Below, in pieces: positions 36-239 of a stretch of 4,893 nt of DNA. The DNA lies in the IMG/VR virus record IMGVR_UViG_2548876958_000007. The stretch is one strand, 5' to 3'. The translations under genes were made by a program, and so were the position numbers. How positions within the stretch are numbered: the stretch's first letter is position 1; every line of letters starts with the position of its first letter. Source of the DNA: a virus. Taxonomy: Duplodnaviria; Heunggongvirae; Uroviricota; Caudoviricetes. Under the pieces are notes generated by a model. That model did no database searches. It worked only from the letters and a program-made list of their open reading frames with translations, and was not told the origin of the DNA.

Positions 36-56
36 AAAACGCCTCGAGTGAAGCGT
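36..56 (-). terminator. Candidate intrinsic terminator (third of three in tandem)
   Basis: Minus-strand RNA CGCUUCACUCGAGGCG forms a 6-bp stem (one G-U) with a 4-nt loop, followed by UUUUUCGUU. Confidence 0.45.
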
Positions 57-69
57 TATTGGTATGCAT

Positions 70-95
70 ATAAAAAGGCCCTCACACTGGAGGGC
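70..95 (-). terminator. Intrinsic (Rho-independent) terminator
   Basis: Minus-strand RNA GCCCUC-CAGUGU-GAGGGC (6-bp GC-rich stem, 6-nt loop) followed immediately by CUUUUUAUAU. Confidence 0.65.
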
Positions 96-157
96 AAAGA
101 AGATTTCCAATAATCAGAACAAGTCGGCTCCTGTTTAGTTACGAGCGACATTGCTCC

Positions 158-185
158 GTGTATTCACTCGTTGGAATGAATACAC
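158..185. repeat. Perfect 9-bp inverted repeat with 10-bp spacer (GTGTATTCA-N10-TGAATACAC)
   Basis: Plus 158..166 gtgtattca and 177..185 tgaatacac are exact reverse complements; no U-tract follows on either strand, so not a typical intrinsic terminator. Confidence 0.6.
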
Positions 186-212
186 AGTGCAGTATTTATT
201 CTGTTGTTTATG

Positions 213-239
213 CCAAAAATAAAGGCCGACTATGCGGCC
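213..239 (-). terminator. Candidate intrinsic terminator overlapping the stop codon of the 207-aa gene
   Basis: Minus-strand RNA GAGGCCG-CAUAGU-CGGCCUU (5-7 bp GC stem; the loop contains the UAG stop) followed by UAUUUUUGG. Confidence 0.5.

Follow-up and report, generated by a model that had tools for sequence, protein, structure and literature searches.

The window, by which we mean the whole stretch of 4,893 nucleotides that was analysed, is by its predicted gene content a lambdoid immunity and early-left region (Table 1). Its leftward genes run from a cI-like repressor through two accessory genes to a pL-like promoter found by scan, N and one further gene, and cro and cII lie on the plus strand. 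The product of the first gene after N matched the Pfam family PF18757 Nmad5 (E=3e-71), and in identical prophages RefSeq names the same gene 'Nmad5 family putative nucleotide modification protein'. The best database matches of the window were Stx1a-converting phages and E. coli prophages, with E. coli 2014C-3061 and F8704-2 among the strains that matched at 100%, and the region was found in 2256 of 5426 complete E. coli genomes.

Several smaller features of the locus were seen alongside these genes. The DUF3024 and P63C-domain genes together occupy the stretch between cI and the pL region (window 1797-3337, minus) that is the position of rexAB in lambda; the spacer between them is very AT-rich (about 2790-2930), and a strong terminator-like hairpin is present in this region at 1787-1770 (minus). 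The 13-mer CGCTGACAAAGCG occurs twice in identical form (1465-1477, minus; 4451-4463, plus) against a chance expectation of 0, once inside GGCGCTGACAAAGCGC and once inside TCGCTGACAAAGCGA, and the two boxB-like hairpins are placed as nutL and nutR; a boxA-like CGCTCTTTT lies at 4418-4426. The 3' end of cII contains an antisense 12-bp terminator-like hairpin followed by a T-run (4795-4825, minus), at the position expected for the terminator of an OOP-like antisense RNA.

Table 1. Features of the window, with positions counted from its first letter.
Feature	Position	Strand	Details
cro and cII		plus	
nutR boxB-like hairpin	4451-4463	plus	between cro and cII
cI-like repressor	3398-4105	minus	
DUF3024 gene	2996-3337	minus	accessory, downstream of cI-like repressor
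P63C-domain protein gene	1797-2732	minus	accessory, downstream of cI-like repressor
pL-like promoter match	1576-1548	minus	found by scan
nutL boxB-like hairpin	1477-1465	minus	between pL-like promoter and N
N	915-1298	minus	
Nmad5-family gene	230-853	minus	first gene after N; 207 aa from ATG at 853
T1, putative terminator	213-241	minus	stem 241/240-235 with 228-223/222, loop 234-229, then UAUUUUUGG
T1 hairpin	241-222	minus	GAGGCCGCATAGTCGGCCTT, tail TATTTTTGGC
RNA hairpin	152-191	minus	14-bp stem 187-174 / 169-156, 4-nt loop, lower 3-bp stem 191-189 / 154-152
PreS (LPR1) homologue, predicted	72-156	minus	about 85 nt: 5' stem-loop 149-123, single-stranded seed region, tL2a hairpin, U5 tail
PreS +1	G156	minus	from preprint primers, +1 at GAGCAATGTCG
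PreS seed core	104-121	minus	UGUUCUGAUUAUUGGAAA; the 18 nt deleted in lambda lpr1-delta-seed
PreS M1	117-115	minus	primer-defined mutation in seed core
PreS M2	107-105	minus	primer-defined mutation in seed core
tL2a homologue, predicted PreS terminator	72-95	minus	hairpin 95-78, C77, U-tract 76-72
Hairpin 2	95-78	minus	GCCCTCCAGTGTGAGGGC, tail CTTTTTATAT
Mosaic junction, cassette insertion point	67-68		between tL2a block and tL2b-cIII block; empty in window and HK620
tL2b homologue, predicted	33-57	minus	hairpin 57-38, U-tract 37-33
Hairpin 3	57-38	minus	AACGCTTCACTCGAGGCGTT, tail TTTCGTTATG
cIII ribosome-binding site and start	1-21	minus	AAGGAG 20-15, ATG 8-6; predicted 5' part of the cIII thermoregulator or alternative-structure element

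The part of the window between the end of the Nmad5 gene and cIII (1-241, minus) is very probably the conserved 'ral/ea10-cIII' intergenic module of the lambdoid pL operon, made up of T1, an RNA hairpin, PreS/tL2a, tL2b and the cIII start. For this module, homology, coordinates, hairpins, covariation and arrangement frequency were computed here, and PreS expression, Hfq binding and targets are taken from the literature on lambda. A consensus scan found three terminator-like hairpins, all on the minus strand, with folding energies of -11.0 (241-222), -10.7 (95-78) and -9.9 kcal/mol (57-38) and z-scores against mononucleotide shuffles of -3.5, -3.0 and -4.8, respectively. The entire window contained 12 terminator-like matches compared to 4.2 +/- 2.2 in shuffles, and simple arithmetic gives an expectation of ~0.09 matches for 206 nt of one strand; the three observed in that space are far beyond chance. 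The initial annotation had described three minus-strand terminator hairpins, the first enclosing a stop codon and the last followed by the Shine-Dalgarno sequence and ATG of another gene, and each of these elements was recovered: the TAG stop of the Nmad5 gene (232-230) sits in the loop of T1, and the start downstream of the third hairpin is that of cIII, at 100% identity to lambda.

Hairpins 2 and 3 are predicted, by homology, to be the lambda terminators tL2a and tL2b. BLAST aligned window 1-67 to lambda 33456-33522, which contains the cIII start, at 100% identity, and window 68-233 to lambda 33923-34087 at 96% identity. The hairpins of lambda tL2a (33952-33931) and tL2b (33512-33493) are base for base the same as those of the window, with the tail of tL2a reading CUUUUU in the window and GAUUUUUU in lambda. 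Both the scan and the folds gave a G+C-rich hairpin followed by a U-tract in each case. The annotation of HK620 (NC_002730) includes a 'tL2A' that maps to window 68-95 and a 'tL2B' that maps to window 36-57, adjacent to one another as in the window, and Sf6 (NC_005344) also annotates 'tL2A'. Among relatives the stem of tL2a is invariant and its loop variable, and tL2b has one compensatory variant in which C-G is replaced by U-A. When lambda was subjected to the same scan, it returned a T1-like site (34095-34080), tL2a, tL2b and a further site at 33162-33145. The tL2 cluster of lambda, comprising tL2a and tL2b, was reportedly described by Luk and Szybalski in 1983.

The position of tL2a and tL2b upstream of cIII is the same in the window as in lambda, and their mutual adjacency is as in HK620. 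In lambda the two are separated by a 400-bp ea10 cassette, whereas the window and HK620 are without ea10. The cassette at this junction is ea10 in lambda, gene 33 in Sf6 and a P22-gp17-like gene in H-19B, and several further fillers were seen in IMG/VR loci. In a sample of 114 IMG/VR loci sharing the PreS seed, tL2b directly followed tL2a in 46 (~40%), the two were separated by ~420 nt (ea10) in roughly 36, and other cassettes filled the remaining loci. The terminators look 'stacked' because each mosaic module brings its own terminator and no cassette lies between tL2a and tL2b here. Judged by these homologies, the cluster is the ordinary, already known lambda-type tL2 series of the pL operon upstream of cIII. 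Several cassettes in the tL2 region end with a stop codon placed inside a terminator loop; in ea10 the TGA stop codon is part of the loop of the small hairpin CCGC CTGAGT GCGG, which has TTTT after it and directly precedes tL2b (L001 828-850, lambda ~33527-33549).

T1 has the anatomy of an intrinsic terminator, with 7 pairs (5 G-C) and the tail UAUUUUUGG, and, reading downstream from the pL-like promoter, it is the first strong site of this type. Since the scan found no other good terminator-like site between that promoter and T1, T1 may take the role of lambda tL1. In lambda, tL1 follows N; in this phage, by contrast, the first gene after N would be transcribed without antitermination. The 3' arm and U-tract of T1 fall within a block common to lambda and Sf6, and the 5' arm is the end of whichever gene lies upstream. 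T1 is perfect in this phage and in a few loci of the Nmad5 or Sf6-gene-34 type. Some relatives have a strong version (-9.7 to -15.2 kcal/mol), lambda has a weak one (-4.3 kcal/mol), in others it is degenerate or absent, and HK620 lacks it. It is plausibly an intrinsic terminator and apparently not a conserved requirement.

Two observations touch on T1. First, no terminator-like site is present between N and the Nmad5 gene (854-914). Second, in several ral-carrying relatives ral ends in a hairpin whose loop contains the stop codon, AAGGCTGCCTGATGGTGGCCTT, at -13.9 kcal/mol, and two G-to-A differences bring the ral-end hairpin of reference lambda (L001 1381-1396, lambda 34080-34095) to -4.3 kcal/mol.

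The main content of the module, missed by the initial annotation, lies between the repeat and hairpin 2. Window 156-72 (minus) is predicted from homology to encode a counterpart of the known Hfq-dependent small RNA PreS, also called LPR1, with hairpin 2 as the terminator that forms the sRNA 3' end. PreS coordinates were taken from the cloning, deletion and mutation primers of the preprint, including P970/P971, P838/P839 and P888/P889. Counted from +1 through the terminator hairpin, 79 of 79 nt are identical between the window and lambda, seed included, and the seed core is identical in the window, lambda, HK620 and Sf6. The numbering used in the preprint for the pairing with alaS (LPR1 nt 42-56) fits the window mapping, and lambda PreS from +1 to the end of the U-tract measures 87 nt, compared to a reported band of ~88 nt. 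The predicted sRNA has a Rho-independent terminator and a poly-U tail, the features of an Hfq proximal-face module; the tail in the window is U5 (76-72; CUUUUUAUAU), one U shorter than the U6 of lambda, which could lower termination or Hfq binding relative to lambda. The genomic context is lambda-like, in the early leftward operon between a post-N accessory gene and cIII, although the gene upstream of PreS is Nmad5 in this phage and ral in lambda.

In lambda, PreS/LPR1 is encoded in the interval flanked by ea10 and ral, and tL2a forms its 3' end (2025 review; bioRxiv 10.1101/2024.10.31.621285). It is a ~88-nt Hfq-bound sRNA with a ~68-nt processed form (Silverman et al., 10.1101/2024.10.31.621285) that is expressed in the lytic cycle only. 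Its seed pairs with two host mRNAs, dnaN, where pairing exposes the ribosome-binding site and raises DnaN, and alaS, which it represses, in support of lytic replication; deletion of PreS leads to less phage DNA replication and less spontaneous phage release, and conservation of PreS in Stx phages has already been reported (10.1101/2024.10.31.621285). Because this Stx-type or 933W-like prophage region appears to carry an intact PreS with the same seed, the results obtained in lambda probably transfer to it.

Existing annotation offers little at this position. RefSeq annotates only the flanking proteins and misses the sRNA, Rfam 15 has no family for PreS, and an Rfam search at permissive thresholds gave no family over window 22-241, lambda or the Salmonella homologues apart from Lambda_thermo. 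A ToxT_thermometer match at 447-525 was rejected as chance (29.8 bits vs 81), and PMC8044961, PMC6544977, PMC10695390 and PMC6206680 contain nothing on the element. Diverged PreS homologues were seen in P22-like Salmonella phages (L126, L127 and L128-L238), where identity over window 1-156 is 72-74%. Their body types II and III, for which Rfam has no family, have a longer seed region and the terminator hairpins GCCGCTC/GGGCGGC, GCCCGGC/GTCGGGC and GCCCCG/CGGGGC, and they recombine freely with six families of upstream hairpin, with the junction at GAGCAAT.

The upstream hairpin is formed by the repeat. At the DNA level it is, as first described, a perfect 9-bp inverted repeat (158-166 / 177-185) with a 10-nt loop; as RNA it is larger, with a 14-bp stem that contains two G·U pairs in the minus-strand RNA and a further 3-bp lower stem, and hairpin 191-152 folds at -22.8 kcal/mol with z of about -6 to -7. 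The basal pair of the 14-bp stem is the PreS +1 nucleotide, and the lower stem uses PreS nt 3-5. Covariation was assessed across 221 loci with a conserved PreS 5' core, including the diverged P22-like Salmonella homologues, with RNAalifold on a trimmed alignment and with an anchored test; MAFFT on long flanks misaligned one hairpin family.

The 221 loci comprised 45 distinct hairpin variants in 6 sequence families. Every one of the 45 variants has an 11-bp helix whose end lies at -2 relative to PreS +1, and in 37 of them 11 of 11 positions are paired; none of 900 shuffles reached 11 pairs in the anchored test. RNAalifold found changes on both sides in 9 of the 11 pairs. Paired cells made up 97.9% compared to 62% in shuffles, and the covariation score was 0.855 compared to 0.194 in shuffles, with 0 of 500 shuffles scoring as high and slid controls at <=0.148. 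The GCAC...GAGC frame and an apical AUU/AGU with a U·G wobble are conserved, and the eight pairs between them vary. Helix length differs among families: lambda-type sequences form a 14-bp stem that is followed, past a 1x1 mismatch, by 3 (+3) bp, whereas in the others a helix of no more than 11-12 bp is followed by an isolated pair and 2 bp. Of the G·U pairs, 11 occur on the transcript strand compared to 1 on the opposite strand, an asymmetry to which no more than two or three independent wobble positions contribute. In 6 of 6 families the transcript strand folds more stably than the opposite strand.

Since the helix keeps pairing while its sequence changes and the G·U pairs fall on the transcribed strand, hairpin 191-152 points to an RNA-level element of the leftward pL transcript, not a DNA palindrome. 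The repeat had been put forward as either an RNA processing or stability element or a protein-binding site; covariation and strand asymmetry favour the former, and the G·U pairs on the transcript strand speak against the latter. Its most likely role is in processing or stabilisation, setting the 5' end of PreS. Two features around it were also seen. A GAATAA motif upstream of the hairpin is kept in all families, and in a fold of the precursor (221-68) the segment CAGAAUAA (196-203), 5' of the hairpin, pairs with the start of the seed, UUGUUCUG (115-122); the resulting three-way junction could hide the seed until processing.

We tentatively propose, as a possibility that stops short of being the expected outcome, that hairpin 191-152 is a dedicated structure-specific signal that excises PreS from N-antiterminated pL transcripts, and that the 'boundary sequence' named in Sf6 is a mobile hairpin-sRNA-terminator cassette with at least three sRNA body types in E. 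coli and Salmonella phages. Transcription from pL would reach PreS and cIII mainly as N-antiterminated read-through. The hairpin would then direct an endonucleolytic cut at its own 3' base, with RNase III as the prime candidate, and this cut would create the PreS 5' end. The upstream mRNA would keep a hairpin-protected 3' end, provided by the inverted-repeat hairpin after a single cut on the 3' side; a double-strand cut by RNase III would instead leave a 3' end protected by T1, ~30 nt upstream. The read-through step agrees with the initial suggestion that the gene after the terminators is reached from pL only in this way, which is the classical N logic of lambda, and the window has N and two boxB-like nut hairpins. 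In lambda, N-antitermination read-through is the only route from pL to cIII, past the terminators that precede it.

Phage hairpins processed by RNase III include the T7 R1.1-type sites and the lambda sib and N-leader sites. Like these, hairpin 191-152 is a long helix within a polycistronic early transcript and has a small internal mismatch close to where the 3'-side cut is presumed; cleavage would likewise give an upstream mRNA protected by a hairpin and create a new 5' end. An RNase III site would be expected to span roughly two turns of dsRNA. Unlike classical RNase III sites, it has a lower stem of only 2-6 bp, which is short for such a site and counts against RNase III, making this a resemblance and not membership of the class. 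The sequence around PreS +1 (CACG|GAGCAAU) is unlike the known preference of RNase E. Two further points stand against the overall explanation of the module. First, N-modified polymerase should read through tL2a, leaving the formation of the PreS 3' end on antiterminated transcripts unexplained. Second, a dimeric DNA-binding protein could in principle also make an inverted repeat covary.

No sigma-70-like promoter was found by scan on the minus strand at 150-260, and neither the scan nor inspection of the six hairpin families by eye showed a consistent -35/-10 for a PreS promoter. The preprint describes neither the origin of the PreS 5' end nor an rnc-dependent cleavage (10.1101/2024.10.31.621285). 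The covarying hairpin that ends at PreS +1 offers a concrete handle on PreS biogenesis, and the paradox of an sRNA whose 3' end is a terminator inside an antiterminated operon offers a second. If the hairpin does act as an excision signal, T1 upstream and tL2a downstream would set the amount of PreS with and without N.

The main rival to cleavage is a purely stabilising role, in which the hairpin would be only a 3'-end stabiliser of the upstream Nmad5 or ral mRNA, or a structural insulator, and the PreS 5' end would come from another nuclease site or a weak promoter. An exonuclease block needs just such a sequence-independent, structure-conserved helix, and T7-type RNase III sites and REP-like hairpins act in this manner. 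However, the helix end is fixed relative to PreS +1 in 45 of 45 variants, within the GCAC...GAGC frame, T1 could already protect the mRNA in this phage from its position ~30 nt upstream, and the scan gave no promoter-like site. We regard a stabilising role without processing as rather unlikely, although it deserves serious weight beside excision of PreS by the hairpin.

A role for the repeat as DNA, either as the binding site of a dimeric protein or as a recombination 'boundary sequence' for the exchange of lambdoid modules, is improbable. Sf6 annotates the bases matching window ~78-190, which are the hairpin plus PreS, as 'bsq4; boundary sequence', mosaic junctions are found at both ends of the block, and symmetric operators covary too. 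Yet where the helix departs from Watson-Crick pairing, the transcript strand has G·U and the other strand A·C in all six families, by 11 to 1, one U·G is kept while its neighbours vary, and the arms pair through to a loop of 3-5 nt, unlike spaced half-sites. The sRNA accounts for the sequence conservation of the block; where the boundary-sequence idea saw a recombination linker, the block is now known from lambda to encode a functional sRNA.

The three terminators were initially read as an unusually stringent N-dependent barrier before cIII; in a pure form of that reading the intervening DNA would have no product and the repeat would be incidental. All three hairpins have terminator anatomy, the homologues of hairpins 2 and 3 are annotated terminators, and cIII comes directly after them. 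Nevertheless, the 85 nt between are the sequence of an experimentally characterised sRNA, the adjacency of tL2a and tL2b changes with cassette content (adjacent in 46 of 114 loci), T1 is degenerate or absent in many relatives, and lambda has an equivalent series, tL2a and tL2b included, so that a dedicated gate is very improbable and the claim of unusual stringency does not hold. The stacked terminators in themselves add little, being lambda tL2 terminators and PreS, known biology juxtaposed by mosaic gene content. What novelty remains is modest and consists of the covarying hairpin that marks the start of PreS, no fewer than three diverged body types of this sRNA, with Salmonella phages among their carriers, and T1 after Nmad5.

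Two other readings have next to no credibility. A small protein might be made from a 31-aa ORF (151-56, minus), instead of or besides the sRNA, given its AUG at 151-149 and a similar ORF readable in lambda, but GGAG is only 2 nt from the AUG, the frame crosses the terminator hairpin, and the AUG becomes AUA in body types II and III with the RNA structure elements kept; we rejected it on this loss of the start codon in diverged homologues. The repeat might equally be a terminator for rightward (plus-strand) transcription, as it is followed by a T-rich stretch at 192-210, but on that strand two A·C mismatches reduce the stem to an effective 9 bp around a 10-nt loop, the scan did not call it, there is neither a gene nor a promoter upstream on the plus strand, and the opposite-strand fold is the weaker in 6 of 6 families; poor stem quality led us to reject it.

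Lastly, the module very probably ends in the first part of a known regulatory RNA element at the cIII start, the cIII thermoregulator. Window 21-1 matched positions 1-21 of the Rfam model RF01804 Lambda_thermo exactly (25.6 bits, E=0.011). This score is below the gathering threshold of 50 because only the first third of the element, 21 of 59 model positions, lies inside the window; the complete element in lambda scores 88.5 bits.
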